Source: Spirochaetes bacterium GWB1_36_13
GTDB lineage: Bacteria; Spirochaetota; GWB1-36-13
Assembly (NCBI GenBank): GCA_001829155.1
Contig: MIAO01000061.1
Span: forward strand, 31,714 to 95,713
Direction of reading: 5' to 3'
DNA: 64,000 bases
Part shown: piece after piece, positions 9,201 to 51,894 of the stretch
How the letters are laid out: every line of letters starts with the position of its first letter
Position numbering within the stretch: the first letter of the stretch is position 1
The notes under the pieces: generated by a model
What the model was told of the DNA's origin: nothing
Seen by the model: only the letters and a program-made list of their open reading frames with translations
The model's database searches: none
Position numbers and translations under genes: made by a program

Positions 9201-9416
9201 GTCAGTGATAAAGGCGGATTTGATGACCTTCCTTTAAAACTGAAAGATTTTTATTACAGTACCGGATGGGGGCTGAAAATTGAAATCCCAATGTTTCCGA
9301 TCCGCCTTTATTTTGCCAAAAGGCTGAAATGGGAAGACGGATTTTTTAAAGACCAACAGCCGGGATTAGGTCTTGGAAACTGGACATTTGTCCTCTCGAT
9401 TGCCGGATTTTTTTAG
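6282..9416 (+). CDS. bamA: Outer membrane protein assembly factor BamA (Omp85), long form with acidic insertion
   Basis: Signal peptide, a long POTRA-like N-region, and a C-terminal beta-barrel with alternating aromatic pattern. It ends in a GNWTFVLSIAGFF-type terminal motif. skp genes follow. Confidence 0.85.
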   Translation: MRKISQSLMAALVFLVCPVFLNASDYQGKIIKEIHFFGLHNAEEDKLTPALYLSQGMEFVDEKASKDLKNLYEFGYFENIRLEIIEENGQLTLNYIVEERPQIFKIEIRKKKTFDDEDYEIMGQFEYKAWDEISIFDFEYHVLKAVQKRKMDEAKNQEDYEYIKKAYQKNEEDMIYELTSDADEDKVIEIFQSIHFQYEDPEDASLEIKRKDILKFMKNKEWEFYNPYYVKKDEKKILEEYVKEGFAETEARTDDSLLKDSGVLVIEIKEGKKINIQKLDILGTGNIDPDDLKDTMEKISEPRYLGIKDYQLPLFANDFKEDKDKMIKFAKSQGYMKFKIDQISVLVKYSFLELMERIGAVLENADFEGDKIEIILDGLKKVFETDGFNPDKAKIDSILKSIAGTDEQKKAVETIKTYIFNRLELLNNEKTILEKTLAEKLKMPDIKIEIKSETTVHPEEESGYYLSFKIEEGPQYTFGKIELAGNEKITTKSLFEGFDMEEGSVYNDTKFEEFMRNSYMSYQSNGFFYSKITPIPKVDEEKKVISYVIDIYEGEKVHIENMYIIGNSKTETPVIDREFRIREGEIYDFSKILRTHERLMKSQFFANAEFEPKTGSEEGLIDLFWKVEEGKTGMLTMGGGYGTLSGFTLFGQISELNFLGKGYNLSFRGDYGQKSQSLSTSFGSRWIGYIPVSYSFSISYKWAQNDVIPSYDRDHNGLIDKYYNNGSGMSLYNEGASDFDNYSDEDRNGDGMASSTADALDDERYFKSQSLVFGLGFGYSISEYWGAGARQSLSFSKYYDAKNITVDNLYEDDEYRLRTLLKTGKYEPVTQTGFSVSYDSTDNYLTPTKGIVFSPDVTFYGLQGGYNQFINYSVDLSGYLTLKEIKKYKWNLVWANHIGISTITALPFKNSPKLYSENRLDFDGIRELRGWENQLYDDKVKGLGKVSLGSELRIPIPGTQNLLWWAFFFDGGNVSDKGGFDDLPLKLKDFYYSTGWGLKIEIPMFPIRLYFAKRLKWEDGFFKDQQPGLGLGNWTFVLSIAGFF

Positions 9417-9424
9417 GAGAAGGG

Positions 9425-9940
9425 ATGATTCGTTTTTTTGTTTTTTTCTTTTTATTTTTTCCTGTTTTTTTAAAAGCCGATATTCTCATTAAAGTCGGTG
9501 TTTTTAAAATGGAAAAAGTAGCAGAAGAATATTTGAAAGCAAAAGAACTTCGGGAAAGCTGGAATCTTTTTCTGGATAAGAAATACTATCAGCTTTCCAT
9601 TTATCAAAAAGAGTATGATTTTATTAAAAATATGAACGGGCCTTTATCCGAAAGGATCAATTTAAATAATAAACTTTTAAGCCTGAAAAAGAAAATTGCG
9701 GTTTTAGAAGAAAAAAAAAGAAAAGATTTTCTGGAACTGGAAACGCTTAAGGGAAAAGAGCTGAAAAAAGAAATTATTCTTGCGATCAAAGAAGCAAGGC
9801 GGAAAAAAGGTTTCAGCCTGATTTTTCCTGAGGAAGATTTTATTCTTTTTTATGATGAAAAAGTGGATTTTAATACTTTTCTTCTGGAAGAACTGACAGC
9901 AAGAGAAGAAGAAAGGCTAAAACAAAACACGAATGATTAA
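9425..9940 (+). CDS. skp: OmpH/Skp-family periplasmic chaperone
   Basis: Signal-peptide-like N-terminus, ~170 aa, lysine/glutamate-rich coiled coil. Position immediately after bamA. Confidence 0.6.
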   Translation: MIRFFVFFFLFFPVFLKADILIKVGVFKMEKVAEEYLKAKELRESWNLFLDKKYYQLSIYQKEYDFIKNMNGPLSERINLNNKLLSLKKKIAVLEEKKRKDFLELETLKGKELKKEIILAIKEARRKKGFSLIFPEEDFILFYDEKVDFNTFLLEELTAREEERLKQNTND

Positions 9941-9953
9941 TTTTGGGGGGAAA

Positions 9954-10469
9954 ATGAAAAAAATCACTCTGTTCTTTATTTTGACTTTTGGGCTTCCGTT
10001 GTGCCTTGGGGCGCAAAGCAGCACAACAAAAATAATAAAATTAGGATACATTGACCTTCAAAAAGTGATAAAAACTTATCCTGAAGGAAAAAAAGTCCTT
10101 GATTTTCTAAAAAATCAGAGAGATACTTATGAGAATACAAAAACTCAGATGGAAAATGATATTAAAAAACTGGAAGGCGAACTGGAATCAAAATCAAAAG
10201 AACTTTCAGAAATGCAGGTCAGGGATTATTTAGCCCAGATTGAAGCAAAAAGACAAGAGCTGGAAATCTTTATCAATAACGCCAATAAAGACCTGGAAAA
10301 GAAAGAAAAAGAAATGCTGACCCCAGTTTATCAAAAAGTTCTTGAAACAATCCGGACAGAATCGCCCAATCTTGGATTTAATTTTATTATTGACTACAAA
10401 TATGTTTTGATAGCCGATCCGGAACTGGATATTACAGAAAAAATCATTAAGATACTAGAAGGAAAATGA
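9954..10469 (+). CDS. skp: OmpH/Skp-family periplasmic chaperone (second copy)
   Basis: The MKKITLFFILTFGLPLCLGAQS signal peptide starts at an internal ATG preceded by a GGGGGG RBS (track ORF starts at 9933). Coiled-coil Skp-like body. Confidence 0.6.
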   Translation: MKKITLFFILTFGLPLCLGAQSSTTKIIKLGYIDLQKVIKTYPEGKKVLDFLKNQRDTYENTKTQMENDIKKLEGELESKSKELSEMQVRDYLAQIEAKRQELEIFINNANKDLEKKEKEMLTPVYQKVLETIRTESPNLGFNFIIDYKYVLIADPELDITEKIIKILEGK

Positions 10470-11065: not shown

Positions 11066-11449
11066 TTATTGCTTGAAGTAAATTTTTACAGCCTGTATGA
11101 TTGTTTTTGCATAATGTAAGTTCTTTTCAGCTGTTTCTGAATCTATTTCAGACATCGCATCATAATCACCAATTTGACGATCTTCAAACAATGCATGAAT
11201 AAAATTATTAAATTCTTTTGGAAATAAGCCTGTTTTGATAAATTCACGGTTAAAAGCTCCAATTGTTTGTCCATGAGATGAAAAAGTCAGGTTTTTTGAT
11301 AAAAGCAATGCTGAAATGGCATGAAAAACCGCATAATAACTTCTGGAAACAGAGTCATCGTATCTTTTATTTTCAAACTCTAATTCTGCAGTAAAAAGTT
11401 TACTATCTGATTTTTTTAATAGTGCTTGTATTTCTGTCAGTTTTTCCAT
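11066..11449 (-). CDS. HEPN-domain protein (toxin-like partner of the MNT nucleotidyltransferase)
   Basis: 127 aa. It has the HEPN (PF05168-like) helical pattern (SYYAVFHAISALL...FEDRQIGDY). It lies directly downstream of the MNT gene with a 0-nt gap. Confidence 0.7.
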   Translation of the reverse strand: MEKLTEIQALLKKSDSKLFTAELEFENKRYDDSVSRSYYAVFHAISALLLSKNLTFSSHGQTIGAFNREFIKTGLFPKEFNNFIHALFEDRQIGDYDAMSEIDSETAEKNLHYAKTIIQAVKIYFKQ

Positions 11450-11770
11450 TTATATAGAGATACCTTCTTTTCGTATATTTATAGCTATTGGCATATTTTC
11501 TCTTTTTTTCCATTCATTTTCATCATAAATAATACTTGCTAATAAAACATCGAATTGACTGAGTAATTTTACTTCCAGTTTTCTTATTTGCTCAACAATG
11601 AGAGAATCTTTATAAGCAAGTACGATCAAAAAATCATAGTCAGAGCCTTCATGAAAATCTCCTCTGGCTCGAGAACCAAAAAGAAAAAAATTTTTTAAAT
11701 TGTCCTTAAGTTCTTTTTTTAGCAGATGAGCAAAATCTTTTACAATAGAATCAAGCAAACATATCTCCAA
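11450..11770 (-). CDS. Minimal nucleotidyltransferase (MNT, Pol-beta superfamily) antitoxin-like
   Basis: GSRARGDFHEGSDYDFLIV is a GS-x-D-x-D nucleotidyltransferase motif. 106 aa. Confidence 0.75.
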   Translation of the reverse strand: MEICLLDSIVKDFAHLLKKELKDNLKNFFLFGSRARGDFHEGSDYDFLIVLAYKDSLIVEQIRKLEVKLLSQFDVLLASIIYDENEWKKRENMPIAINIRKEGISI

Positions 11771-12143: not shown

Positions 12144-13925
12144 ATGAATAAACTGAAAAAAGGAATCAAACAATTTTGTCAGTCTATAACAATCAAAAAA
12201 TATAGTTTTTTTATTGTCGGTGGAACTATTCTATCAAATTTTGTTTCGCTTTTATTTGAAAAAAATTTATTGCAAATCACAAGTGATAATTTAATTGAGC
12301 AGATGCATCTCCTTCCAATCAGTCTTAAAGTGATTAATTTTATTATTAATATTATATTTCCTTTTTCAATTCCAGTTTTTTTGATTTTGAAACATTTTAA
12401 ACCTATTTCTCTTTTTTTAAGAAAAAATCATAAGCCTATGGATTCCTATACTGCCAAAAGAATATTGAACCTTCCTTTAACCATTGGTTTTTTATCAAGT
12501 TTGGGTTGGATTATTTCTTTTGTAGGCATGAGTCTCATGCTTTATATTCTACAATCAGAAAATTATATCAATTTTGAGATTTCTCAATTTCTCATTGGAG
12601 CTCTGATTCATGATCTTATTCTTGGAAGTTTATCATTTGTTGTTTCTTTTTATTTTTTTGAATATATAAACCGAAAGATTTTTATTCCATTTTTTTTCCC
12701 AATGGGAGATATTTCCCATTACACAGGTGTTGTTAATTTATCAACTCGCACTCGGTTTGTTTTTTATTTTTTAGCTATAGTTATTTTTCCTTTTGTGATG
12801 ATATCAATTCATCTTTACGATTTTTTCTGTAATGAAAGTTCTTTTCATCTTTCTCAATTTGGAAAAACATTTTTTATCATTGCTTTATTTTTTATCATTT
12901 CAGGGTTAGTATTAACTTTTCTAATGATTAAATACTATCAAAATCCCTTAAAGGCAATGAAAAACATGACAGAAAAGATCAGGCAGGGGGATTATGAAAC
13001 AAAGATGCAGGTTGTGTCTTCAGATGAACTGGGATATCTGGGAGAAAGTTTGAATCAGATGAGCAGTCAGCTCAAAAATCAGATTACAGAAATAACCAAT
13101 ATGAATAAAAATCTCGAGTGCAAGGTCAGGGAAAGAACTCAGGAACTTGAAGAAGAAAAAAACAAGCTGAAAATCAGGAATGTTGAAATTGAAAAAGAAA
13201 TTGAAATGGCGCGTCAAATTCAAAAGTCATTAATTCCTTCGGTTGAGCCTGCTCCTCATATTGCTTCATTTTATAAGCCGATGAGTCAGGTAGGCGGAGA
13301 TTTTTACGAGTTTATTCCATTTCCGGAGGAAAATAAAATCGGATTTTTTTTAAGCGATGTTTCCGGACATGGAATTCCTGCCGCTTTTATCACATCCATG
13401 ATCAAAAGTTTTATTTTGCAGGCAGGAAATGTCAAAAAAAACCCGGCGGATTTTTTATCTTATCTCAATGAAGGGCTTTACAAGCAGACTGCGGATAATT
13501 TTATCACAGCTTTCTATGGAATTTATTCCTATGAGGATTATTCCATGATTTACGCGAATGCAGGGCACAATCCGCCTTATGTCATTCAAAAAGACAGTGT
13601 TGATTTTCTTCCGATGTTAAAAAAAGGTTTTCCGCTTGCTGTTTTTGACAATCAATTTCTTGAAATGAAAAAAACGCTTTATCAAAATAATAAATTTTTT
13701 TTTCAATCAGGCAATCGGGTCCTTCTTTATACAGACGGGCTTACCGAAACTGTCAATGACTTAAATAAAGAATACTATTTTGAAAATGAGATAGAAGAAA
13801 TATTAAAAGGCTGTTATTCCCTTTCCCCGAAATTATTCATAGAAAATCTTTATCAGAATTTAGCCCGTTTTAGGGGCAATGAGAGTTTTGAGGATGATAT
13901 TTGTATGATTTGTTTTGATGTATAA
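12144..13925 (+). CDS. Membrane sensor with HAMP-like region and PP2C-type (SpoIIE/RsbU-family) serine phosphatase domain
   Basis: N-terminal multi-TM region, then a coiled-coil/HAMP-like segment (SDELGYLGESLNQMSSQLK). C-terminal SpoIIE motifs are GGDFYEF...FFLSDVSGHGIPAA...YTDGLTE. Confidence 0.75.
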   Translation: MNKLKKGIKQFCQSITIKKYSFFIVGGTILSNFVSLLFEKNLLQITSDNLIEQMHLLPISLKVINFIINIIFPFSIPVFLILKHFKPISLFLRKNHKPMDSYTAKRILNLPLTIGFLSSLGWIISFVGMSLMLYILQSENYINFEISQFLIGALIHDLILGSLSFVVSFYFFEYINRKIFIPFFFPMGDISHYTGVVNLSTRTRFVFYFLAIVIFPFVMISIHLYDFFCNESSFHLSQFGKTFFIIALFFIISGLVLTFLMIKYYQNPLKAMKNMTEKIRQGDYETKMQVVSSDELGYLGESLNQMSSQLKNQITEITNMNKNLECKVRERTQELEEEKNKLKIRNVEIEKEIEMARQIQKSLIPSVEPAPHIASFYKPMSQVGGDFYEFIPFPEENKIGFFLSDVSGHGIPAAFITSMIKSFILQAGNVKKNPADFLSYLNEGLYKQTADNFITAFYGIYSYEDYSMIYANAGHNPPYVIQKDSVDFLPMLKKGFPLAVFDNQFLEMKKTLYQNNKFFFQSGNRVLLYTDGLTETVNDLNKEYYFENEIEEILKGCYSLSPKLFIENLYQNLARFRGNESFEDDICMICFDV

Positions 13926-13937
13926 TCTTGAGGAAAA

Positions 13938-14705
13938 ATGAAATCAGGAAGAAAAATTCACCTTGAAGGGATTATTGTTTATTCTATGAATTATGCGGAA
14001 AGTCATAAAATATTCAGAATCTTTACTCCGGATCACGGAATTGTTCCCGCAATGGCTTACGGAGCAAGAAAAATGAAAAGCAAATTCAGGGGAAAACTTG
14101 AGACTCTGAATTGGGTGGAGGGTTCGTTTTCGATTGGCAAAAATTCATTTTATATTCTCGAGGAAGTGGAAATTAAAGTTGTTTTTACTTCTGGTCTTTC
14201 CTATGAAGTTATTTGGAAAATATTTCCTTTTTTAAAGTTTATCAATCTTTCATTTTTTGAAAAAAAAGAAGAAAATATAAAGATTTTTCAAATGTTTGCT
14301 GTTTTTCTTAAGCAGCTCGATAAAGATACAGATGAAAAAAAAATGAATCTTTTAATTTACTCATTCGTAATAAAATATTTAATTATTCATTCAATTGTAA
14401 AAAATCCAAAATACTGTTCCCTCTGCGGCGAAGAAAATCAAAGTGGAATTGCCTGGAATATCAAAAACGGAATGACTGTCTGTAAAAAATGCGCCGTTCC
14501 CGAGTCGATTTACCGTTTTTTTGATCAAAATTTAAAAGAATTTTTAATAAAAATAATTTATTCTAAGTTTGAAGAGATTATATATTTAATAGTGAAAGAT
14601 GATGAACTGGAATTTTTAAGGGAAACGGTTGATTTTTTATTGTTTCATCATCTGAATAAAAAGTGGGAAGATTTTGAAATCAATGAAAATCCTTTTAATT
14701 CTTAA
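13938..14705 (+). CDS. recO: DNA repair protein RecO
   Basis: N-terminal OB-fold pattern (EGIIVYSMNYAESHKIFRIFTPDHG). C-terminal CxxC...CxxC zinc motif (CSLCGEE...CKKCA). Confidence 0.7.
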   Translation: MKSGRKIHLEGIIVYSMNYAESHKIFRIFTPDHGIVPAMAYGARKMKSKFRGKLETLNWVEGSFSIGKNSFYILEEVEIKVVFTSGLSYEVIWKIFPFLKFINLSFFEKKEENIKIFQMFAVFLKQLDKDTDEKKMNLLIYSFVIKYLIIHSIVKNPKYCSLCGEENQSGIAWNIKNGMTVCKKCAVPESIYRFFDQNLKEFLIKIIYSKFEEIIYLIVKDDELEFLRETVDFLLFHHLNKKWEDFEINENPFNS

Positions 14706-15555
14706 TCCTAGATCCGGCAGAAAAAAAGCTTTAAAAGAAAAAGCTTCTCTGGAAAATATTTTAAAAAGCAAAGGGGAAGTCCTGACTTATATTACCAATG
14801 GAAAAACAGATAACGAGGAAATTAGAAAAATAAAAAGAGAAGAACCTCTTATTCAATTGGTTGTCGCCTGCGGAGGCGATGGAACCTTGAATATGGCAAT
14901 GACTGCTTTAAGAGAATCGGATGATCTTTTGTTTATTTTTCTTCCTTACGGGACAATCAATGTTTTTGCCAGAGATAATGGCTATCTGATGAATCCGGTC
15001 AAAGCGCTCGAAAAAATTATAAATGACTGGAATGTGAAGATGATTTATCCCGGATATTCAGGGGATAGATCTTTTATTTTAATGAAAAGTATTGGTTTTG
15101 ATAGTTATCTTGTTGAAAAAGTGGAAACAAAAGGAAAAACATTAATGACTTTTTCTTATGTCATCGCTTTCCTGCAAAATATTTTAAAATATAATTTTAA
15201 AAAAAAATATAAAATTATTTTAGATGGAAAAGAAGAGCATGAAGCAAGTTTTGCGGTTGTGAGTAATTGTAAGAAATACGGAGGTTTTTTCCAATTTACC
15301 CCTCATCCTGTTTTTGATAAAGATTTTTTTTTCGTTGCGCTTTTTTCAGGAAAAAGCTTTTTAGAATTATTATTTTTTATACTGAAAGTTTTTTTTAACA
15401 GGCATATTTATTCTCCAAAAGTAAAAATATTGAAAGCGAAAAAAGTAAGAATTGAAGGGAATGGGAGAACTCAACTGGATGGAGAAATTGGATTTCATCT
15501 TCCGGTTGATATAAAAAAAGGGCGAGGAGTTTATTTTGTTTTACCGAATGAATAA
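14674..15555 (+). CDS. Diacylglycerol-kinase-family lipid kinase (DAGK_cat, YegS-like)
   Basis: LILNPRSGRKKA...VVACGGDGTLN matches the DAGK catalytic-domain glycine motif. Overlaps the recO end. Confidence 0.75.
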   Translation: MKSMKILLILNPRSGRKKALKEKASLENILKSKGEVLTYITNGKTDNEEIRKIKREEPLIQLVVACGGDGTLNMAMTALRESDDLLFIFLPYGTINVFARDNGYLMNPVKALEKIINDWNVKMIYPGYSGDRSFILMKSIGFDSYLVEKVETKGKTLMTFSYVIAFLQNILKYNFKKKYKIILDGKEEHEASFAVVSNCKKYGGFFQFTPHPVFDKDFFFVALFSGKSFLELLFFILKVFFNRHIYSPKVKILKAKKVRIEGNGRTQLDGEIGFHLPVDIKKGRGVYFVLPNE

Positions 15556-16387
15556 AAATTATTTATTTCTTTTTCTTTTATTTCTTTTTATTGGATGCGC
15601 TCAAGACGGCATCGTTTTAACTTCAACTGACTTGTATCAAGACGAAGCGCTTCAAAAGAAAACTGAATATTCTTTAAAAAGAGGAGAATACATTAAGATC
15701 TTAAAATGCAGTCAAAAAACATGCAGAGTAAGTTATGAGAAAAATATTGAAGGATATGTTGCTTTAGACAAGATTTACGGCGGGGAAGTTCAGATTGTGA
15801 CTTTTATCAAAGATACAGATGTGAAACTGAAACCCGATTTAACAGCAAAGACTCTTAAAAAAGCTGAATCGGGTGTTAAAGCGTATTTATTTGGGGAAGA
15901 TAAAATCTGGTCGTTGGTGAATCTGGGAGATGTGCAGGGGTGGGTACTTATGCAGAATCTTTTTAAGGGGGAAAGTCCCATTCGTTTGGAATCAAGTTAT
16001 GATAACACGGTTCTTCAGTGTGAGGGAGAATGGTATATTCCTTCCATTTCGGAAGAAAGGGTTTTCAGCATTGAAAAAGCATTTGATAATAATCCTTCGA
16101 CTTTTGCTATTGTTAAAATTGATTCAGAAATCGAAGTGAATGTTAAAAATATTGATTATCAAAAAGAAAATCTTGTTATTCAGTATGAACCCCAAAAAAA
16201 AATGAACTATAAGCACTTAGCTTTGCCGGAAGAAATCCTTTTGACTTACCCTTTTGAAAAACAATATAATTTAAATTCAAAAATAAGTATTGAATTAAAC
16301 GGAAATAGTTTTAAATTTAAGGTGACAAAAGCTAAAAAAGATTTAGTTTTTCTCAATAATTTTTTTATACAAAAATTAAACAAATAA
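15536..16387 (+). CDS. Hypothetical lipoprotein
   Basis: TTG start with a GAGGAG RBS 6 nt upstream. Lipobox LFIGC. Confidence 0.5.
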   Translation: MFYRMNKNYLFLFLLFLFIGCAQDGIVLTSTDLYQDEALQKKTEYSLKRGEYIKILKCSQKTCRVSYEKNIEGYVALDKIYGGEVQIVTFIKDTDVKLKPDLTAKTLKKAESGVKAYLFGEDKIWSLVNLGDVQGWVLMQNLFKGESPIRLESSYDNTVLQCEGEWYIPSISEERVFSIEKAFDNNPSTFAIVKIDSEIEVNVKNIDYQKENLVIQYEPQKKMNYKHLALPEEILLTYPFEKQYNLNSKISIELNGNSFKFKVTKAKKDLVFLNNFFIQKLNK

Positions 16388-16403
16388 TAAAAAAGGCAGT
16401 GAA

Positions 16404-17408
16404 ATGTTTAAAAAAATCTGGCTTAAGATAAAAAATATCTTTGCCGCAAAACTTCCTGCGACATCAAAACAGCAGCGGATTTTTATCAATAAACAATTGA
16501 ATCATTATGAATCAAATTATCAATTTTTTGAGACTTCAGATGCGAAAATTGCTTATTTTGTAAGAGAAGATGAAAAAAAAGAACCTAAAAAAAATGTTTT
16601 ATTTCTCCATGGAATGACGGAAGATTCTTTAAACTGGTTTTATGCAGTCGAGTATCTCTATATTAAAAGCAGTCATTACCGTTCATTTGCTTTGGATCTT
16701 CCCGGTTTTGGGCAGACACAGTTTGAAAATGAGAGTGTGATTAATCTTCACCGCTATGTAGAAATTATAAAAGAATTTTTAGATTATCATAACATTGATA
16801 AGATTAACCTTGTCGGGCATTCTCTTGGAGGACAGACAGCGGGGCTTTTTGCTTATCATTATCCGGATAGAGTTGAAAAACTGATTCTGGTTGATACCGC
16901 TGGGCTTAGGCGTTTTAATGTTCTTGCATCAGCTTTTTTTAAAGCCATGCCTGTTCCCGGAAATATGCTGAAGCAGATTTCTTATTTAGATTGGGTCAAG
17001 CTTTTATCAAATACTACAATGGTAGAAGATGAGGCTGTTTTTCGGAAGAGTTTTTATGATGTCGCAATTAAACGGAAAAATAATATTACCGAATATATTA
17101 TCACCAGAAACTATCAAAAACTCCTTCAGGACGGATTGAAAAGAGTGAGCGCTATTAAAAAGTCAATGTCAGCTATGCTGGAACCGACAACTTATATAGA
17201 TGATAAACTGCCTAAACTTTCAATCCCGATTTGTTTTCTATGGGGCGAGGAAGATAAGCTGGTACCTTTAAAATATGGAATCCAAGGTTATGATTCCATT
17301 CACTCTATGAATAAAAAGATATTTGTTTTCAAAAAAACAGGGCATTATCCTCTTCTGGAAAGGCCCAGAGACTTTGCGGAAGTTGTTTTCAACTTCTTAG
17401 AACAATAG
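16404..17408 (+). CDS. Alpha/beta-fold hydrolase
   Basis: HGMTED oxyanion region and a GHSLGG nucleophile elbow. Confidence 0.75.
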   Translation: MFKKIWLKIKNIFAAKLPATSKQQRIFINKQLNHYESNYQFFETSDAKIAYFVREDEKKEPKKNVLFLHGMTEDSLNWFYAVEYLYIKSSHYRSFALDLPGFGQTQFENESVINLHRYVEIIKEFLDYHNIDKINLVGHSLGGQTAGLFAYHYPDRVEKLILVDTAGLRRFNVLASAFFKAMPVPGNMLKQISYLDWVKLLSNTTMVEDEAVFRKSFYDVAIKRKNNITEYIITRNYQKLLQDGLKRVSAIKKSMSAMLEPTTYIDDKLPKLSIPICFLWGEEDKLVPLKYGIQGYDSIHSMNKKIFVFKKTGHYPLLERPRDFAEVVFNFLEQ

Positions 17409-17426
17409 AATGCAGGAGTAAGATTT

Positions 17427-18824
17427 ATGTTTATTGATCCAGTTTTTGGGGTAGTCGGTTTAGTGGTCGTGGTCTTGACATTTATTTTTTTAAGGCGTTT
17501 TCTTCATCTGGGGAAAATCGAGAAAATAGAAAAATTGATTGAAGAAAAAAATTTTGACAAGGCAATTGAGCCTCTTAAAAGTATGATTATTAAAGATGAT
17601 GAAAATGTTTTAGCTCATTATTATTTAGGGATTTGTTATTTTAATACCAATAATTATGAATGGGCGATTCCAGAATTTAAAAAGGTGATCCGAAACCCTG
17701 GATTTGGTAAACAGATTAAAGAGATTGAAGTAAGGGAAAAACTGGCAAAAATATATCTTCATTATAATCAGCTGGAAGAAGCTCAAAAAGAATTTTTACT
17801 CATGACACAATTGGACCCTAAAAACTATAAAAACTATTATGAAATAGCTCAGATTCTTCAAAAACAGGGGTTTTTAGACGCTGCTTTGACTTATTACCAG
17901 AAAACTCTGGAAAGAAATCCAAAACTCCCTGAAGCCTATTATAATGTGGGATTAATTTCTTATGACAAAAAAAAATACAACGATGCTCTCAGTCATTTTT
18001 CAGATGCACTAAAATATGATACTGCGCTTCATAAGGCTCATTATTATATTGGAATGATACAATATATGAATAAAAATTATGAAAAGGCTCTTGGAGAATT
18101 TGCATACAGTGAAAGAGACTCTGAGATGAGACCGAAGACGATTCTTCAAAAAGGAAAAATTTATATTGAAATGGGGCAGATGGATAGAGCCATAAATGTT
18201 TTTGACGGGTATCTGAAAAATATCAGCTCGGAAAATTCAGTAACTCTAGCAATGCATTATAATCTTGCATCAGCTTTTGAAATGAAGCGGAATATTATTT
18301 CCGCGATTGAACAATGGGAAAAGATTGTTAAAATTAAACCCAGTTATATGGATGTTCAGGATAAACTTTCCGAATACGAGCATCTTCGGGTGGATGACAG
18401 AATCAAAGACTTTATTGTCGCTTCTAAAGAAGGCTTTCAGATTATGTCGAGAAATATTGTCGAGATGTGGAATTATCAGATTATTAAAGAAGATATGCTG
18501 GATGATGAAAATATAGAGTTTCTTGCCACGGAAGCAGGTTCAAAATGGAGAAATACCAGAAAAATAAGAATCCTGATTCTCATTTCCAGAAAAAACAATA
18601 AAGTAGAAGAAAGGGAACTGGCGAATATTATTGACAATATGAAAATAAATAATACCATGAAGTCAGTTTATGTTTCTGTTTCAGGATTTACCGATAATGC
18701 GAGACAGTATGCTCAAAACAGACCTATTGATCTGATAGATAAGGAAAAAATGACAAAAGTGCTCGAACAGGCCGATATTTATGCAAAAGATAAAATTAAA
18801 AATAAATTAAGCAAAACAGAATAG
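17427..18824 (+). CDS. Membrane-anchored TPR-repeat protein with C-terminal Mrr-like restriction-endonuclease-fold (PD-(D/E)xK) domain
   Basis: N-terminal TM helix (VVGLVVVVLTFIFL). Multiple TPR-like repeats (YYLGICYF, YYNVGLISY, HYYIGMIQY). The C-terminus (FQIMSRNIVEMWNYQII...DDENIEF...SVYVSVSGFTDNARQYAQNRPIDLIDKEKM) resembles the Mrr_cat domain end (...FTxxAxxxAxxxxIxLIDG). Confidence 0.55.
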   Translation: MFIDPVFGVVGLVVVVLTFIFLRRFLHLGKIEKIEKLIEEKNFDKAIEPLKSMIIKDDENVLAHYYLGICYFNTNNYEWAIPEFKKVIRNPGFGKQIKEIEVREKLAKIYLHYNQLEEAQKEFLLMTQLDPKNYKNYYEIAQILQKQGFLDAALTYYQKTLERNPKLPEAYYNVGLISYDKKKYNDALSHFSDALKYDTALHKAHYYIGMIQYMNKNYEKALGEFAYSERDSEMRPKTILQKGKIYIEMGQMDRAINVFDGYLKNISSENSVTLAMHYNLASAFEMKRNIISAIEQWEKIVKIKPSYMDVQDKLSEYEHLRVDDRIKDFIVASKEGFQIMSRNIVEMWNYQIIKEDMLDDENIEFLATEAGSKWRNTRKIRILILISRKNNKVEERELANIIDNMKINNTMKSVYVSVSGFTDNARQYAQNRPIDLIDKEKMTKVLEQADIYAKDKIKNKLSKTE

Positions 18825-18833
18825 GGATAATAT

Positions 18834-19661
18834 ATGATCAAAAGTGACCGAACGCCTGTCTTATGGGTGTCTGAATGGCCTCTCCGTACTTTTTTTCTTT
18901 TTCATTATATTGATGATTTAAATCTTAAAAGTTCAGAAGAAAGAATGGAAATTGTCTGGGCAATTGTGAATAAAATGCTTTTGGCAAAAGATGCGGAAGT
19001 AAACCATTTTTTAGTTTCAGAAGAAATGATTTTGAAAGAAGTAGAAGAGTTAAAAAAACAAGTGGAAGTTAAATTGGCTCTTCAAACTGAAAAACTCGAA
19101 GAAGAAGACCTTTTCTTATTTGTTAAGATTGACCTTTTATCACAGCTTTTTATCAATCAGATAAAAGAAAAAATAAGAGAAGATTTAAAAGGTCGGGAAA
19201 ACGAGATTCGGGACTATTATGAAAAAGCAAATGATTTTATATTAAAAGACGCCTATCTTTTAGAAGCTTTTTCTATTGGAAAAGACAAGGAAAATCTATT
19301 GAGTGAATCTTTTTTTGACAAAGAAAAGCTCTTAAAAGAAGGAATTCAATTTAAAAAAATAGGTTATTTTGATGAAAAAATGCTTGAAGTAAAATTTCCT
19401 GAAAATTATAAAAAAATTCTTGGTAATTCTGAGAAAAAAATTATTTTAATAAGAGAAGATAATGACATTAAGCATTTTATTTATCTTTCCGGACATTATG
19501 AAGAAGTGAAAAAAGACTATGAAGAAGTTGAGGAAGATTTAAAAAATTTCTTTTTTGAACACTCTTTGGAAAATATTTTGGAAGGAATTTATGAAAACCT
19601 TCTTGAAAAATATCCAATAGAGTATAATGAAGATTTTTTTAATCATTTTTTAGGAGATTAG
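18834..19661 (+). CDS. Hypothetical acidic protein (operonic with the TPR-nuclease and REC-STAS-REC genes)
   Basis: 275 aa, E/K-rich. No recognisable motif. 9-nt gap from the upstream gene and a 1-nt gap to the downstream gene. Confidence 0.45.
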   Translation: MIKSDRTPVLWVSEWPLRTFFLFHYIDDLNLKSSEERMEIVWAIVNKMLLAKDAEVNHFLVSEEMILKEVEELKKQVEVKLALQTEKLEEEDLFLFVKIDLLSQLFINQIKEKIREDLKGRENEIRDYYEKANDFILKDAYLLEAFSIGKDKENLLSESFFDKEKLLKEGIQFKKIGYFDEKMLEVKFPENYKKILGNSEKKIILIREDNDIKHFIYLSGHYEEVKKDYEEVEEDLKNFFFEHSLENILEGIYENLLEKYPIEYNEDFFNHFLGD

Positions 19662-19662
19662 T

Positions 19663-21069
19663 ATGGTAATGTATAAAGTCCTTTTAGTGGATGAAAATAA
19701 AGAAAATATCCAGTTTTTTAAAGAAATTTTTGAGAAATGGGCGATTGACTGTATGGTAGTCAATGACATCGATAATTCTTTATTAAAGATTAATATTCTA
19801 AAACCGGACTTTATTATGATATCTTCTGATCTTCAGGTTAATTATGAAAATATTATCCAATTTCTGGCAACCAAAAACTTCAAAATCCTTCTTTATGGAA
19901 GAAAACAGGCTAGCTTGAATTGGAAACATATTGTTGGTTTTAAAGGATATCTTCCTTTTCCTTATAATGTTCTTCAGTTTAAAAATATGTTTTATTCCAA
20001 TTTAAAAAATGATTATAAAAAAGATGATAAGGAATCTCATATCGAACTGGTTATCAACGATAAAATAGGTGTTGTTGATCTAGCGGGGAAAATAACATGG
20101 GAACAAGTGCATGAACTGAAATATTCTATTATTCATTCTATTCAAAAAGATGAAATCCTTGGAATTATCTTTATTTTTCAGCAGCTTGAGAACATGGATT
20201 CAGACTTGACTGAATTGATTGAACATTCATTTAGTTTTATAAAGGATTTAAAGTTTGATTCAAAGGCGATTAAATTTTTAAGTATGGATAAAAGAATTAT
20301 TGACCTTATTCATCAAAACCCCGTCTTGCGGAAGATAGAACAGGTAAATTCTTTTGCGGAAGCTTTTTTAAGGCTTCAAAATATCAATTTAAAGGGAAAT
20401 AATCTGGGGCTGGATATTGATTTTTTAAAAGAAAATATTAAATTAGTTGAAAATGTTTATGATGAGTATGGGAATCTGATAAAAAAGGCGGGAGATATTT
20501 TTTCCAAAGAAGATATTTTTAAACTCAGAAGTGAAGGAATTACAAAAATCTATTATGCCAATGAACTTTCATATATGGGAATATCAATCGGCGATGTTTC
20601 TGAAGTCAAAAAAAATATTGAGGAAATTATTATCCGTCAGGCTGAAAATGCAAGTAATTTAGGCATTTCAGAAGAAACCCAAAAGAAGGCAAATCTCGAA
20701 GAGAAACTGGTTATTCTTGTCGAAGATGATAAGGGAAGTCAGATGCTGATAGCAAAAATACTGGACAAGCTCAAATGCAGTTATAAGATTGCTGATAATG
20801 GACGGGATGCTCTTTCTTATGCGATTCATTACAATCCTCATTTAATCATTCTGGATTTAATGATGCCGAAAATGAACGGGGTAGAGTTTGTGAAACAATA
20901 CAAGGAGCTTCGTAAAAATTTACTGGCGCCTATTATTGTAACTTCCGGTGTCAATAAACCTGAAATTATTCAATATTTATTAAAAACTAATGTAGTCAAA
21001 GATTTTATATTAAAACCTATTGTCGATTTAAAAGGTTTTGTTTTTAAAATTTTAAATTACCTTGTCTGA
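19663..21069 (+). CDS. Multi-domain regulator: degenerate N-terminal receiver, central STAS (anti-sigma-antagonist-like) domain, C-terminal CheY-like receiver
   Basis: The C-terminal REC has LVILVEDD...LIILDLMMPKMNG...LKP. The central segment (IGVVDLAGKITWEQVHELKYSI...) is STAS-like. The N-terminal segment (VLLVDENKENIQFFKEIF...FIMISSDL) is receiver-like. Confidence 0.6.
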   Translation: MVMYKVLLVDENKENIQFFKEIFEKWAIDCMVVNDIDNSLLKINILKPDFIMISSDLQVNYENIIQFLATKNFKILLYGRKQASLNWKHIVGFKGYLPFPYNVLQFKNMFYSNLKNDYKKDDKESHIELVINDKIGVVDLAGKITWEQVHELKYSIIHSIQKDEILGIIFIFQQLENMDSDLTELIEHSFSFIKDLKFDSKAIKFLSMDKRIIDLIHQNPVLRKIEQVNSFAEAFLRLQNINLKGNNLGLDIDFLKENIKLVENVYDEYGNLIKKAGDIFSKEDIFKLRSEGITKIYYANELSYMGISIGDVSEVKKNIEEIIIRQAENASNLGISEETQKKANLEEKLVILVEDDKGSQMLIAKILDKLKCSYKIADNGRDALSYAIHYNPHLIILDLMMPKMNGVEFVKQYKELRKNLLAPIIVTSGVNKPEIIQYLLKTNVVKDFILKPIVDLKGFVFKILNYLV

Positions 21070-21173
21070 AAAAATCTCAATTTTTTATAAATAAATTTTT
21101 TTTATTGACTTTTTTTCTTTATTTTTTTTATTTAAAAATTAAATTTAAAAGTTATTGATATTAAGAGGTAAAA

Positions 21174-22004
21174 ATGAGATTAAAACGGGTTGCGCTTTTA
21201 TTTTTTCTATCTTTAGTTATTTGTTCATCTTTTGTTTCGGCTGAGCAATATGATCAGAAAGAGGCTGAAATTGAAATCGATAATGCTTCAAAAGCAATAG
21301 CGGAAGCATTAAGCGATCCTAAAACAAGGGATTTTCTTCCGTTTCTATTTGGAGAATCGAAAAAATATTATGAAGAAGCCAGATATTATCTGGAAGAAGA
21401 AGAATTTGACTGGTCGGTTTATTTTTCAAAAATGTCGCAGATCATGGCTCAGGCATCTTTATACCGCGCAAAAGCGGAGCTTTTAAAATGGCAGCTAAGG
21501 GATGAAGAAATAAAGAAATGGAAAAAAACAGCGACAGCAGGTGAAAAAGGAAATCTTTATCAGGAAAAAATCAAAGCTTTGGAGCAAGAATTTCTAGAAG
21601 CAAAATTAAATCTTTTAATGGCTGAAAATAAAATGGAAAAAATGGGTAGGGTTTATATCTTGACAATCAATGATAAAGACCTTTTCATATCCGGAACCTA
21701 CGCAATCAGTGATAACGGGCAGGCTGTTTTAGATAAAGTTCTTCAGGTGCTTTCTCTTGTGCCTCAATCGAAAATTACAGTAGAGGGGCATACTGCCAAA
21801 GCAGATAAAGACAATAACGCCACCATTAAGGCCAATTCAGTCAAAGATTATTTAGTCAGGAGAAGTAAAAATCCTCTGGAAAATATCTGGATAACAGCTT
21901 ATGGAAATCAAAAACCTTTGGTTATTAATAATAAAGTTCTTCGGGGACCTGAAAATGACAGAATTGTGATCGTTTTCGAGCTGCCTGAAAAAATACATGA
22001 ATAA
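21174..22004 (+). CDS. Secreted protein with helical DUF4398-like N-domain and one degenerate OmpA-C-like domain
   Basis: Signal peptide. C-terminal ...VEGHTAKADKDNNATIKANSVKDYL...YGNQKPL...NDRIVIVFELP follows the OmpA_C scaffold. The TD Asp and RA Arg positions are substituted. Confidence 0.6.
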   Translation: MRLKRVALLFFLSLVICSSFVSAEQYDQKEAEIEIDNASKAIAEALSDPKTRDFLPFLFGESKKYYEEARYYLEEEEFDWSVYFSKMSQIMAQASLYRAKAELLKWQLRDEEIKKWKKTATAGEKGNLYQEKIKALEQEFLEAKLNLLMAENKMEKMGRVYILTINDKDLFISGTYAISDNGQAVLDKVLQVLSLVPQSKITVEGHTAKADKDNNATIKANSVKDYLVRRSKNPLENIWITAYGNQKPLVINNKVLRGPENDRIVIVFELPEKIHE

Positions 22005-22014
22005 GGAGAAAAAT

Positions 22015-22356
22015 ATGAAAATCAAACCAATCTTTGCTTTATCTTTTTTAATTATCTTTATGAGCGGGAATCTTTTTGCAGCTGTAAAAAAAAATAAACA
22101 GGACGCTGAATCAAAGGTGAAAGTAGCTGAAATCCAATACGATCAAATAAAAAAAGAAGCTCACGATATGGCGCCTAAAGAACTTTTATCTGCTGAGCAA
22201 GCACTTAAAAATGCGAAAAAAGAACTGAAAGAAGAAGAATGGCTTTATGCCTATCAGGAAGCGGATAAGGTAATGGCTTATCTTACTTTGATCCGGGCAA
22301 TTATTGAATATAAAAATGCTTTGAAAGAATATGAAAACTTTAAAAACAGCCAGTGA
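22015..22356 (+). CDS. Small secreted helical protein paralogous to the N-domains of the flanking OmpA-like proteins
   Basis: Internal ATG at 22015 with an AAGGAG RBS (track ORF starts at 21997). Signal peptide. AYLTLIRAIIEYKNALKEYE resembles ASLYRAKAELLKWQLRDEE in the neighbouring genes. Confidence 0.45.
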   Translation: MKIKPIFALSFLIIFMSGNLFAAVKKNKQDAESKVKVAEIQYDQIKKEAHDMAPKELLSAEQALKNAKKELKEEEWLYAYQEADKVMAYLTLIRAIIEYKNALKEYENFKNSQ

Positions 22357-24241
22357 CGGGGTAGCGGGTATGCAGAATAAGAAAATTAAGATCATTTTTA
22401 TCGTTTTTTTACTGTTTGCAAATATCACAATCTTTGCTGATAGAAAAAGTTCTGATGAAGTTGAAAGTGAAATTGCTCACGCTGAAAAAATGATCAAAAA
22501 AACTGAAGCATTAAAACCAGTCAAGGAATTTCCCTATGAACTGGTATTGGCAAAATATTATTTAGAAAAAGCAAAAGAGAACCTTGATGACGGAGATGAA
22601 GATATTGCAAGTTATTTTGCCGTTCTTTCAGCAATACAGGGTGAAACGGCTTATTATAAACTTCAGGCCTTTGACCTGAAATGGAAAAGAAAAGAAGAAG
22701 AATTAAAACTCTGGAAGAGTCTGGCTGCTGAAAATTCCGGAGAGATGGCAAAAGTTTACCATAAAATGGAAAAAGAAATCAGGCAGACAAAACTCGATTT
22801 CGCTGTCATAAATGCGGGTTTTGAAAATGCGGACAATGTTTTTTCCATGATGTTAAAAGATTCTGAAAATCTTATTAAAATTACTTTTTCAATTAAAGAT
22901 TCAGGAAAAATTGCTCTTTCAGAATGGTTTCAGATTTTAGCCTTAATTCCTGGGATCCAATTAAAAATTGAAAGCCATACTTCAGGGAAAGATAAAGATA
23001 ACCTTTTATCTACTGCCAAAGGAGAAGCTTTGAAAACTTATCTGATTCAGTCTGGACTTTTTAAGCCGGATCAGATTGTTCTTAATGCTTATGGTAATGA
23101 AAAGCCACTTATGAATCAAGACAAGCCTGTTAAGGGAAAAGCGAATGACCGAATTGAAATATTTTTTGAAAAAGAAAAATCTTATCATTTTATTTTTCAA
23201 GATGCGCAAATTATTAAAAAACAAAAAAAAGATTTTATTTTTAATGGTTCAGGAATGATTTTATTGAACGAATTTTTGGCAATATTTCTACTTCTTCCCG
23301 ATCCTTCCCTTTTAATTGAAGGACATACTTCAAACAAGGATCTTGAGAATTCTTCTTTGGCAAAAGCAGTTTTAATGAAAGATTATTTTATTCAGAAAAC
23401 TGGATTTGCACCTGATAAAATCAAGACAACAGGTTTTGGAGATACGAAGCCTTTGATGAACGGAAGCAAACCTGTAAAGGGGAAAAATAATGACCGAATG
23501 GTTTTATCGATTTTAGTAAAAGATAAAATTGTTTCTCTTTTGCTAAATGATTCGGAAATGATTCAAAAAGGCGGTTTTTCGGCAAGAATCAGTGAGGAAG
23601 GGAAAAAAAACCTCAATGAGCTTGTTCAAATGATTAAAAATAACGCCGTAGAGAAAGCAAGAATTAATATCGAGGGTTTTACCGACAAGTACGATAAAAA
23701 CAATTCTGAGTCCGAATTGAAGGCAAATTTGATACGCGATTATCTGGTGGAAAATGGGAAAATTCCTGTTGAAAAAACAACACTTTATCCACTCGGAAAT
23801 AAAAAACCTTTAAAAGTTGATGGAAAAGTCTTAAAAGGAGTTGATAATAACCGTGTTGAAGTTTCTTTTGCCGTAGGGAAAAAATACCTTCTCGGGATTC
23901 ATGATAATGATCTTTTTATCAAAAAATCTTTTCTGATCAGTGAAAGCGGCAAATCTTATCTTGATAAAGTACATTATCTTCTTTCTTTGATTCCAAATGC
24001 TAAAATATTGATTGAAGGTCATACTTCAGGAAATGATAAAAATAACTCTGTTTCAGAGTCAAAAGCAAGTGCGATCAGAGATTATTTTGTGAATGTCAAA
24101 AAAGTATCGGATGGGAGCATTTCTATCAAAGCTTATGGAAATTTGAAACCTATAGAAATGAACGGGGTTGAAAAAAAAGGCGCCCTCAATGACAGGGTTG
24201 TGATTATTATTGAACTTCCCAAATCGGAAGCGGAAAAATAA
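22331..24241 (+). CDS. Secreted protein with DUF4398-like N-domain and four tandem degenerate OmpA-C-like domains
   Basis: Four repeats of EGHTS(G/N)KDK(D/N)N...DYL/F...YGN.KPL...ND/NR(I/V)E/V. The likely true start is the internal M at 22370 (MQNKKIKIIFIVFLLFANITIFA signal peptide). Confidence 0.6.
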   Translation: MKTLKTASDGVAGMQNKKIKIIFIVFLLFANITIFADRKSSDEVESEIAHAEKMIKKTEALKPVKEFPYELVLAKYYLEKAKENLDDGDEDIASYFAVLSAIQGETAYYKLQAFDLKWKRKEEELKLWKSLAAENSGEMAKVYHKMEKEIRQTKLDFAVINAGFENADNVFSMMLKDSENLIKITFSIKDSGKIALSEWFQILALIPGIQLKIESHTSGKDKDNLLSTAKGEALKTYLIQSGLFKPDQIVLNAYGNEKPLMNQDKPVKGKANDRIEIFFEKEKSYHFIFQDAQIIKKQKKDFIFNGSGMILLNEFLAIFLLLPDPSLLIEGHTSNKDLENSSLAKAVLMKDYFIQKTGFAPDKIKTTGFGDTKPLMNGSKPVKGKNNDRMVLSILVKDKIVSLLLNDSEMIQKGGFSARISEEGKKNLNELVQMIKNNAVEKARINIEGFTDKYDKNNSESELKANLIRDYLVENGKIPVEKTTLYPLGNKKPLKVDGKVLKGVDNNRVEVSFAVGKKYLLGIHDNDLFIKKSFLISESGKSYLDKVHYLLSLIPNAKILIEGHTSGNDKNNSVSESKASAIRDYFVNVKKVSDGSISIKAYGNLKPIEMNGVEKKGALNDRVVIIIELPKSEAEK

Positions 24242-24258
24242 ATTTTAAATTAATAAGG

Positions 24259-24291
24259 CTGCGGATTTAACTCCGCAGTTTATTTATTTTT
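24259..24291 (+). terminator. Rho-independent terminator after the OmpA-like cluster
   Basis: CTGCGGA-TTTAAC-TCCGCAG hairpin followed by TTTATTTATTTTT. Confidence 0.7.
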
Positions 24292-38114: not shown

Positions 38115-38480
38115 TTAAGAGAAAGAAGCAAGCGCTTCGCTTTCACTGTCAAAAATATCAAAGAAACTTGTCAATTTTGTCAGTTCAAAGACTTTCTTTA
38201 CGGAAGCGTAAACATTAATAATTTTGAGCGCTCCGCCGACTTTTTTGAGATTGGAAAGACTAGAAATTAAAACTCCAATTCCAGAACTATCGATGTAGCT
38301 TACTTTTTCGAGATTAATGATGATTTGTCTTTTTTCCTCATCAATGAGCTGTTTGATAGTGTCCTTGATATCTGGAGCATTATAAAGGTCAATTTCTCCA
38401 TTGATATCAAGAAGGATTACTCCTCCATCCTCTCTTCTATTGATTTCCATAAGACCTTCCTCCTTGGTTAAATTAAGCAA
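38115..38480 (-). CDS. Anti-sigma-factor antagonist (STAS domain, SpoIIAA/RsbV-like)
   Basis: 121 aa with the ...VILLDINGEIDLYNAPDIK...SYIDSSGIGVLI... STAS pattern, including the conserved phospho-Ser context DSSG. Confidence 0.8.
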   Translation of the reverse strand: MLNLTKEEGLMEINRREDGGVILLDINGEIDLYNAPDIKDTIKQLIDEEKRQIIINLEKVSYIDSSGIGVLISSLSNLKKVGGALKIINVYASVKKVFELTKLTSFFDIFDSESEALASFS

Positions 38481-51820: not shown

Positions 51821-51894
51821 GGGCTCATAGCTCAGTTGGTTAGAGCGGATGACTCATAATCATTAGGTCGGAGGTTCAAGTCCTCCTGGGCCCA
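51821..51894 (+). tRNA. tRNA with CAU anticodon (elongator tRNA-Met, or tRNA-Ile2 if lysidinylated); no encoded CCA
   Basis: A 74-nt cloverleaf traced by hand. The acceptor stem is GGGCTCA/TGGGCCC (7 bp, one G-U). D-arm GCTCAGTTGGTTAGAGC. Anticodon loop CTCATAA with U33-CAU-A37. T-arm GGAGGTTCAAGTCCTCC. The G1-C72 pair argues against an initiator. Confidence 0.85.

Follow-up and report, generated by a model that had tools for sequence, protein, structure and literature searches.

An Mrr-like domain that has lost its canonical catalytic residues in a predicted membrane-anchored tetratricopeptide repeat protein of spirochaetes

The DNA considered here, termed the window, is a stretch of 64,000 nucleotides (nt) from Spirochaetes bacterium GWB1_36_13, and its positions 16404 to 21069 hold four closely spaced genes, the second of which encodes a protein that combines an N-terminal transmembrane (TM) helix and tetratricopeptide repeats (TPRs) with a C-terminal domain resembling the catalytic domain of the restriction enzyme Mrr. 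This protein, called TPR-Mrr below, belongs to a family that is broadly distributed among spirochaetes and in which, as judged from alignments, the canonical catalytic residues of Mrr have been lost. The four open reading frames (ORFs) are as follows.

16404-17408, + strand: alpha/beta hydrolase gene, 334 amino acids (aa)
17427-18824, + strand: TM-TPR-Mrr-like gene, 465 aa
18834-19661, + strand: acidic protein gene, 275 aa
19663-21069, + strand: regulator gene with receiver (REC), STAS-like and REC regions, 468 aa

All four frames were confirmed at these positions, with gaps of 18, 9 and 1 nt. An initial interpretation made from the DNA letters alone (the sequence-only reading) had allowed for overlaps among them; none exists at these three junctions, and the overlaps of the region lie upstream, between the genes for RecO and a DAGK-type lipid kinase and between the latter and a lipoprotein gene. 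Ribosome-binding motifs of the AGGAG type stand before the TPR-Mrr gene, 8 nt upstream, and before the regulator gene. Within the TPR-Mrr gene, four segments can be delimited.

17442-17492, + strand: transmembrane segment, hydrophobic, residues 6-22, predicted N-out and C-in
17553-18335, + strand: TPR domain, residues 43-303, about eight helix pairs, with the family signature NQLEEAQKEFLL
18336-18425, + strand: conserved linker DVQxKLxxYxxLRxDDxxKDF, nearly invariant, with V310, K313, L314, Y317, D324 and K327 invariant
18426-18758, + strand: Mrr_cat-like domain, residues 334-444, without canonical catalytic residues

The repeats of TPR-Mrr match Pfam TPR_2 (E 5e-29), and its relatives carry only the database label 'tetratricopeptide repeat protein'. 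An AlphaFold2 (AF2) model built from 39 homologues, with a mean predicted local distance difference test score (pLDDT) of 88.9, shows a long N-terminal helix at residues 5-39; some eight TPR-like helix pairs then extend to residue 303 and are followed by two short linker helices. Lysine and arginine are absent ahead of the TM segment in 39/39 homologues, and a mean of 3.6 such residues falls within the 15 positions that follow it, from which the TPR and Mrr-like parts are predicted, because of the positive-inside rule, to face the cytoplasm. The model and the charge pattern thus agree with the membrane-anchored TPR protein that had been proposed.

The C-terminal domain had been called Mrr-like on the strength of short motifs (FQIM...YQII, DDENIEF and SGFTDNARQYAQNRPIDLIDKEKM), all of which are present, and the assignment to the PD-(D/E)xK fold is now borne out by profile comparison. 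Residues 340-444 match Pfam Mrr_cat (PF04471) at 37.5 bits against a threshold of 21, and a profile of the family's C-terminal region aligns with the catalytic domain of E. coli EcoKMrr at an hhalign probability of 97.1% (E 6e-11, 123 columns). In the AF2 model the core at residues 334-417 runs alpha-beta-beta-beta-alpha-beta (H334-347, E350-357, E362-369, E381-387, H395-407 and E412-417, pLDDT about 87-91) and is followed by an alpha-beta unit and a C-terminal helix. Sequence and profile searches of PDB with this domain returned nothing significant, the best matches being a designed protein (E 0.15) and the N-terminal region of RPB5 (E 0.23), and the inactive restriction endonuclease model NA-iREase1 (PF22722) scored 19 bits against a threshold of 27, which is not significant.

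Compared with EcoKMrr, TPR-Mrr has a homologous fold and a common SGFT...A...A segment, and its R388 aligns with Mrr R220, but it lacks the D...QxK residues, carries a KWRN insertion between strands 2 and 3, has a TM helix and TPRs in place of the N-terminal winged-helix DNA-recognition domain, and shows a core-like distribution. No Pfam match to the Mrr_N DNA-recognition domain was obtained for TPR-Mrr, whose N-terminal part consists of the TM helix and the TPRs.

The catalytic residues of Mrr, which we take to be D203, Q217 and K219, were traced through the hhalign alignment and counted by column in 111 non-redundant family sequences. Mrr D203, which lies in GGID, falls on a one-residue gap beside E364, Q217 on L385, K219 on S387, and R220 on R388. 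Lysine occurs in 0/111 sequences at the S387 column, which holds Y (31), L (27), S (22), F (14), M (6), T (3), V (3) and I (2) instead. The eight commonest residues of the L385 column are R (45), V (18), L (12), I (7), W (7), K (5), H (5) and Y (2), with neither E nor Q among them, and the E364 column is acidic in 50/111 sequences (45%). A catalytic D/E/K set at the canonical positions is therefore not conserved across the family, and the canonical D...(E/Q)xK residues, to judge from these columns, have been lost. What is conserved instead is a mostly polar and basic set comprising E369 (103/111), W374 in the family-specific KWRN insertion (100/111), R388 (107/111), K406 (104/111), R432 (109/111) and P433 (108/111). 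Such a pattern would be more easily explained by a binding surface than by a two-metal nuclease site, and the loss of the canonical residues speaks for a role in binding and against one as a nuclease.

To survey the distribution of the family, one genome per GTDB species was scanned with one peptide pattern, and the 80 top-ranking loci were inspected. Relatives of TPR-Mrr are encoded in at least 333 species-level genomes. Almost all of the best 80 loci belong to Spirochaetota, including Brevinematales, Treponema (among them T. berlinense), Spirochaetales, Alkalispirochaeta, Gracilinema and Spirochaeta africana, and several of the best loci lie on complete chromosomes. No plasmid or phage relatives of the Mrr-like domain were found by tblastn at E 0.01. 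Defence genes are typically patchy in their distribution; that of TPR-Mrr is of the core type, not patchy. In the open-access literature searched, no description was found of a phylum-wide family that joins a TM helix and TPRs to a dead Mrr domain, although its parts are of known kinds.

In most of these spirochaetes, the neighbours of TPR-Mrr differ from those in the window. At 48-50 of 83 loci, from Treponema and Spirochaetales, TPR-Mrr is followed by a metallophosphoesterase gene (its ORF starts a median of 10 nt after the TPR-Mrr tblastn match ends) and then by an overlapping gene for a 305-aa ParB-like protein. The latter has a GGxYFVRDGNHR motif and a weak, sub-threshold Pfam match to DUF4032; its best annotated relative is a Tsukamurella plasmid 'ParB' (E 2e-27). 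PDB searches with the Treponema metallophosphoesterase and ParB-like proteins returned nothing. At 18 of these 48-50 loci the next genes are a trio encoding a GAF-SpoIIE protein, a STAS protein and an RsbW-like kinase. On the other side of TPR-Mrr, two further TPR proteins adjoin it, one of about 250 aa that is secreted with a signal peptide and one of about 650 aa with a TM segment, a coiled coil and TPRs; their genes are in divergent orientation in Spirochaetales and on the same strand in Brevinematales, so the adjacency has survived a change of orientation. FlcA and BatC were considered as orthologues of these flanking proteins and rejected, with scores of 22-76 bits against cut-offs of 175-300 indicating generic TPR similarity. 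Examples of these arrangements are listed here by locus number in the scan.

L031:9866-15556: representative locus with TPR-Mrr, metallophosphoesterase and ParB-like genes, an arrangement also seen in L029, L039, L041, L054 and others
L007:5104-7943, - strand: pair of upstream TPR genes
L022:7363-9943, + strand: pair of upstream TPR genes

The set of TPR-Mrr, metallophosphoesterase and ParB-like protein looks like the main conserved operon of the family, and no description of it was found. MutL (40 loci) and XseA/XseB lie beyond the upstream TPR genes, and the DNA-repair genes that recur near TPR-Mrr are MutL, XseAB, RecJ, RecO and RuvB. The synteny of TPR-Mrr is stable and of the housekeeping type.

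Taken together, these observations favour, with a probability of roughly 55%, a TPR-Mrr of the housekeeping type that acts as an inner-membrane-anchored TPR scaffold with a non-catalytic, Mrr-like binding domain. The single N-terminal helix would anchor the protein in the inner membrane, with the remainder in the cytoplasm; the eight or so TPR pairs would serve as a scaffold on which other proteins dock; and, beyond the conserved linker, the dead Mrr-like domain at the C-terminus would bind a ligand through features such as E369, the KWRN loop, R388, K406 and R432. A nucleic acid or a phosphorylated compound is tentatively the likeliest ligand, given the conserved basic residues and, by guilt by association, the ParB-like and metallophosphoesterase partners and the nearby DNA-repair genes; a protein partner is possible.

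Catalytically dead domains of this fold inside larger non-nuclease proteins have precedents as binding or sensor modules. The N-terminal domain of RPB5 has a PD-(D/E)xK fold, and NA-iREase1, RecC and RPB5 all resemble TPR-Mrr in retaining the restriction endonuclease fold without its catalytic residues. TPR-Mrr differs from such modules in having no NACHT/STAND ATPase, and its matches to NA-iREase1 and RPB5 are not significant. RecC is an inactive homologue of RecB (PMC3424549).

Several points weigh against the scaffold interpretation. About 45% of family members still have an acidic residue near the position of Mrr D203, and the active site may have been relocated, with E369, D324/D328 and K406 or R388 as candidates. 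The positive-inside rule is the sole basis of the topology, and fold searches with the full-length model were swamped by TPR matches. Two copies of TPR-Mrr occur on separate contigs of one metagenome-assembled genome (MAG) in two cases (L017/L060, UBA6919; L021/L023, CAJXGR01), so that the family is not strictly single-copy or the bins are mixed.

The genes around TPR-Mrr in the window form part of a longer co-directional string, whose further members are listed below together with the features at its two ends.

12144-13925, + strand: HAMP-SpoIIE (PP2C) phosphatase gene, Pfam SpoIIE E 2.3e-38 plus HAMP
13938-14705, + strand: RecO gene, RecO_N E 5.6e-15, first gene of a conserved seven-gene block
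14674-15555, + strand: YegS/DAGK-type lipid kinase gene, DAGK_cat E 5.6e-20 plus YegS_C, with a 32 nt overlap with RecO
15536-16387, + strand: lipoprotein gene, lipobox-like N-terminus (FIGC), SH3_3 E 3e-4, below threshold
16241-16270, + strand: best sigma-70-like promoter match of the region, TTGACT-18-TATAAT, 11/12, inside the end of the lipoprotein gene and upstream of the hydrolase
21070-21173, no strand: AT-rich intergenic gap, 104 nt, 9.6% GC, ahead of OmpA-family genes

The left edge at 16404 is arbitrary, since the packed + strand string starts at 12144 and the syntenic block starts with RecO at 13938. This block comprises the genes for RecO, the lipid kinase, the lipoprotein, the hydrolase, TPR-Mrr, the acidic protein and the regulator, and it recurs in four diverged lineages: that of the window, L011/L098, L093/L094 and L095. 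The genes flanking it all differ among these lineages, both upstream (SpoIIE; a phosphatase-thioredoxin-PBP group; an unrelated minus-strand gene; a ClpB-like gene) and downstream (OmpA; an unrelated gene; RecJ; trigger factor). Because it has been kept in four lineages despite these differing flanks, the block is a real, selected unit in this clade, although one of seven heterogeneous genes, not of four. Identities to the window proteins are listed by gene.

RecO: 27-41%
Lipid kinase: 43-49%
Lipoprotein: 28-39%
Hydrolase: 43-51%
TPR-Mrr: 64-69%
Acidic protein: 27-36%
Regulator: 43-49%

TPR-Mrr is thus the most conserved gene of the block, at 64-69% between lineages against 27-51% for its six neighbours. 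Outside this clade the association dissolves: in tblastn comparisons with the 80 best loci, the window's neighbours were found only at the closest one (L011) and were missing at 79/80. Co-conservation of the TPR-nuclease, acidic protein and regulator genes, the lack of which would by its own account refute the sequence-only reading, thus holds within one narrow clade, and in other genomes these genes are, for the most part, not conserved together. At least some of the block is probably co-transcribed, and the acidic protein and the regulator are lineage-specific additions, which may dock on or regulate the scaffold.

The acidic character of the 275-aa protein was confirmed (62 D+E against 40 K+R, isoelectric point 4.8). 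It belongs to no Pfam or NCBIfam family, and an exhaustive HMMER search found eight relatives of the same length that are 25-34% identical, where a word-indexed search had found none; the family is very small and fast-evolving. Its fold is that of a SurA/PrsA/PpiD-like chaperone module with a parvulin-like domain, and its structural neighbours include Cj1289/PEB4, PrsA and PpiD, among them PpiD-YfgM (8zht). A Rotamase domain gave no Pfam match even at E 10. Neither the protein nor its homologues have a signal peptide, and the protein has no lipobox; nor is there space for such a peptide, with the ORF beginning 9 nt past the preceding stop codon. In the lack of a signal peptide, a lipobox and a Rotamase match it differs from SurA, PrsA, PpiD and Leptospira LIC12922, and it is read as a SurA-like chaperone-fold protein, predicted to reside in the cytoplasm. 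The two relatives most distant from it (L091:3254-5715 and L092:4317-6798) stand in the order DnaB-MlaE-RecO-acidic protein, with no TPR-Mrr in the flanking DNA covered, which reached up to 6 kb on either side. The gene of 273-279 aa between MlaE and the acidic protein gene there resembles, by eye, a divergent RecO, with a CxxC...CxxC motif and an NPF C-terminus like that of the window RecO. The tie of the acidic protein to RecO may be older than its tie to TPR-Mrr.

Four regions can be told apart in the regulator: residues 1-117 or so form a divergent, REC-like stretch and residues from about 122 to 230 a STAS-like one; an unassigned middle region (about 245-340), the most conserved part of the protein, stands before a canonical REC domain (348-453). 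The C-terminal receiver is secure, with a Response_reg match at E 1.4e-19 and with D355, D356, D398, S428 and K451 invariant. The other two assignments made for this protein have fared less well: the STAS-like region scores 18.4-19.7 bits in Pfam against a threshold of 22.6, and the N-terminal receiver is weak, at 14 bits in Pfam and E 0.0025 in hhalign against the protein's own C-terminal receiver. The REC-STAS-REC architecture is thus plausible but confirmed only in part. Three other members of the regulator family were found, all from this clade, and they adjoin TPR-Mrr wherever the contig was examined.

The remaining members of the string are of familiar types. The hydrolase matches Abhydrolase_1 (E 1e-28) and has a GHSLGG nucleophile elbow in its translation; its NCBIfam matches are generic and far under the cut-offs. 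The window matches contigs of a MAG from groundwater, an uncultured 'Spirochaetia bacterium' (GCA_003527435.1 and ENA assemblies). In L002 (GCA_003527435.1; L002:5247-6123) the lipid kinase is present as two pieces of 187 and 98 aa, while it is intact in the window and in ENA assemblies (290-293 aa), which probably reflects a difference in assembly, or a frameshift, between versions of one MAG. The HAMP-SpoIIE gene is the first of the co-directional string, 12 nt before RecO, and lies outside the conserved block; in the sister lineages L011/L098, L093 and L095, no SpoIIE gene stands upstream of RecO.

The promoter listed above is a consensus match only, from a scan that returned 64 sites against 53.5 expected in shuffled sequences. 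The AT-rich gap that had been described downstream of the four genes is present but holds no predicted terminator, and the first strong + strand terminator lies at 24256-24281, past the OmpA-family genes. GC content is even across the region, with no compositional anomaly, and an Rfam search of the window found a tRNA only.

Elsewhere in the window, the three overlapping genes at 21174-24241 encode a 276-aa protein with an OmpA domain, a small one of 119 aa and one of 636 aa; the last has about four OmpA-like repeats by eye and an N-terminal helical region in common with the 276-aa protein. RuvB (about 24.4 kb) and TrkH come after the terminator. Upstream, positions 6282-10469 hold a 1044-aa ORF, a candidate BamA, and then two OmpH/Skp genes, which together place envelope-biogenesis genes on both sides of the block. 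Between the OmpH/Skp and SpoIIE genes, on the opposite strand, a HEPN/nucleotidyltransferase (MNT-type) pair of the toxin-antitoxin-like kind (11066-11449, - strand, and 11450-11770, - strand) is the sole mobile or defence-like element near the block. A stand-alone STAS gene at 38130-38453 (- strand) is 47-49% identical to the Treponema STAS found behind the TPR-Mrr operon, and a second SpoIIE gene at about 50545-51408 (+ strand) is followed by a TPR-like stretch (51415-51738) and a tRNA (51821-51894). Together with the HAMP-SpoIIE gene at 12144-13925, this makes two genes for SpoIIE and one stand-alone gene for STAS within 64 kb; parts of partner-switching systems are dense in this genome.

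A bolder form of the scaffold interpretation would make TPR-Mrr the membrane-anchoring, DNA-recognising subunit of an undescribed, spirochaete-specific system linking DNA to the membrane, for example in chromosome tethering or segregation or in the processing of DNA ends. It would act with the metallophosphoesterase and the ParB-like (DGNHR) protein in most Spirochaetia and would have been rewired to the SurA-like chaperone and the regulator in the lineage of the window. This form of the interpretation is speculative and unlikely.

A second possibility is that TPR-Mrr serves a signalling module, in which the TPR and Mrr-like parts would form a sensor or docking platform whose output passes through the REC/STAS-like/REC protein in partner switching or a phosphorelay, and in which the STAS-like domain may be a substrate of the upstream SpoIIE phosphatase. 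In favour of this, the regulator gene begins 1 nt past the acidic protein gene and encodes a canonical, phospho-accepting REC domain, and its family has been found beside TPR-Mrr at each examined member; the STAS-like region aligns with SpoIIAA (1auz) at E 0.023 across 97 residues; the string in the window begins with a SpoIIE gene; and the GAF-SpoIIE/STAS/RsbW-like trio stands behind the TPR-Mrr operon at the 18 Treponema-type loci. The STAS assignment is nevertheless below the Pfam threshold and reaches a probability of only 0.4% in hhalign against spirochaete STAS proteins, and the column of SpoIIAA S58 reads S, A, S and R in four regulator homologues, so that the serine is not conserved. 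The block contains no RsbW-type or histidine kinase: no HATPase_c_2 protein was found in 12144-24241, and tblastn of the Treponema RsbW-like protein against the window found nothing. SpoIIE is not upstream in the three sister lineages, and since only two of the co-occurrences are independent, they count as two events instead of 19. Given how many such genes the window holds, two for SpoIIE and a stand-alone one for STAS, adjacency would arise by chance fairly often, and the recurrence of SpoIIE and STAS genes was accordingly down-weighted as support for partner switching. Such a module is doubtful on this balance. Of the suggestion in the sequence-only reading that a nuclease fold had been reused as a sensor in partner switching, reuse for binding or sensing fits the loss of the catalytic residues, but the link to partner switching is weak.

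A further reading compares TPR-Mrr with the envelope adaptors LapB (YciM) and YfgM. In LapB an N-terminal TM helix is followed by TPRs in the cytoplasm and by a small globular domain at the C-terminus, and TPR-Mrr matches it in gross architecture and in predicted topology. TPR-Mrr would then coordinate envelope or lipid biogenesis or proteolysis, with the Mrr-like domain in the role of the LapB C-terminal domain and the SurA-like protein as a client chaperone. The lipid kinase, the lipoprotein, the esterase-like hydrolase and the SurA/PpiD-like fold protein would suit this role, as would the OmpA-family genes downstream and OmpH/Skp upstream; the presence of PpiD-YfgM among the structural neighbours of the acidic protein points the same way, and the PpiD-like chaperone-fold gene adjoining TPR-Mrr recalls the YfgM-PpiD pair. 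YfgM likewise has a single N-terminal TM helix followed by TPRs, but these are periplasmic, whereas those of TPR-Mrr are predicted to be cytoplasmic, and the chaperone-like neighbour has neither signal peptide nor anchor. LapB models score at most 46 bits against cut-offs of 363-474, which is generic TPR similarity, and TPR-Mrr has no rubredoxin domain and no linkage to lpxC or ftsH. The envelope genes, moreover, are not kept beside TPR-Mrr in other spirochaetes, where the metallophosphoesterase, ParB-like and DNA-repair genes are found nearby, and the distant relatives of the acidic protein stand beside RecO and MlaE without TPR-Mrr. An adaptor of this kind is a reasonable alternative, if an unlikely one.

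The proposal that TPR-Mrr is an active, membrane-tethered nuclease and a sensor-effector of defence or abortive infection is very improbable and has been largely refuted: the Mrr_cat fold, the HEPN/nucleotidyltransferase pair 5.6 kb upstream and weak, partial PADLOC hits (14.6-24.5 bits, including a type IV methyl-directed restriction endonuclease at 17.6 bits and PDC-S02 at 24.5 bits in the C-terminal half of the domain) speak for it, but PADLOC gave no system-level match, the canonical catalytic positions are not conserved and the lysine is missing in 111/111 sequences, the wide spread across Spirochaetota, in synteny that is stable and of the housekeeping type, runs opposite to a patchy pattern, there are no plasmid or phage homologues and no compositional anomaly, and the proposed partner genes are not co-conserved.

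If the scaffold interpretation of TPR-Mrr is correct, it removes a false lead towards a defence system, and it carries the caution that an Mrr_cat match with a signalling gene nearby does not make such a system. It also draws attention to a conserved, uncharacterised protein family of the spirochaetes, the phylum to which the Treponema lineage belongs, and offers a testable hypothesis in which a dead restriction-enzyme fold would form the part that binds in a cytoplasmic TPR scaffold anchored to the membrane. Candidate partners of this scaffold are the metallophosphoesterase and the ParB-like protein in most spirochaetes, and the SurA-like protein and the orphan regulator in the lineage of the window.

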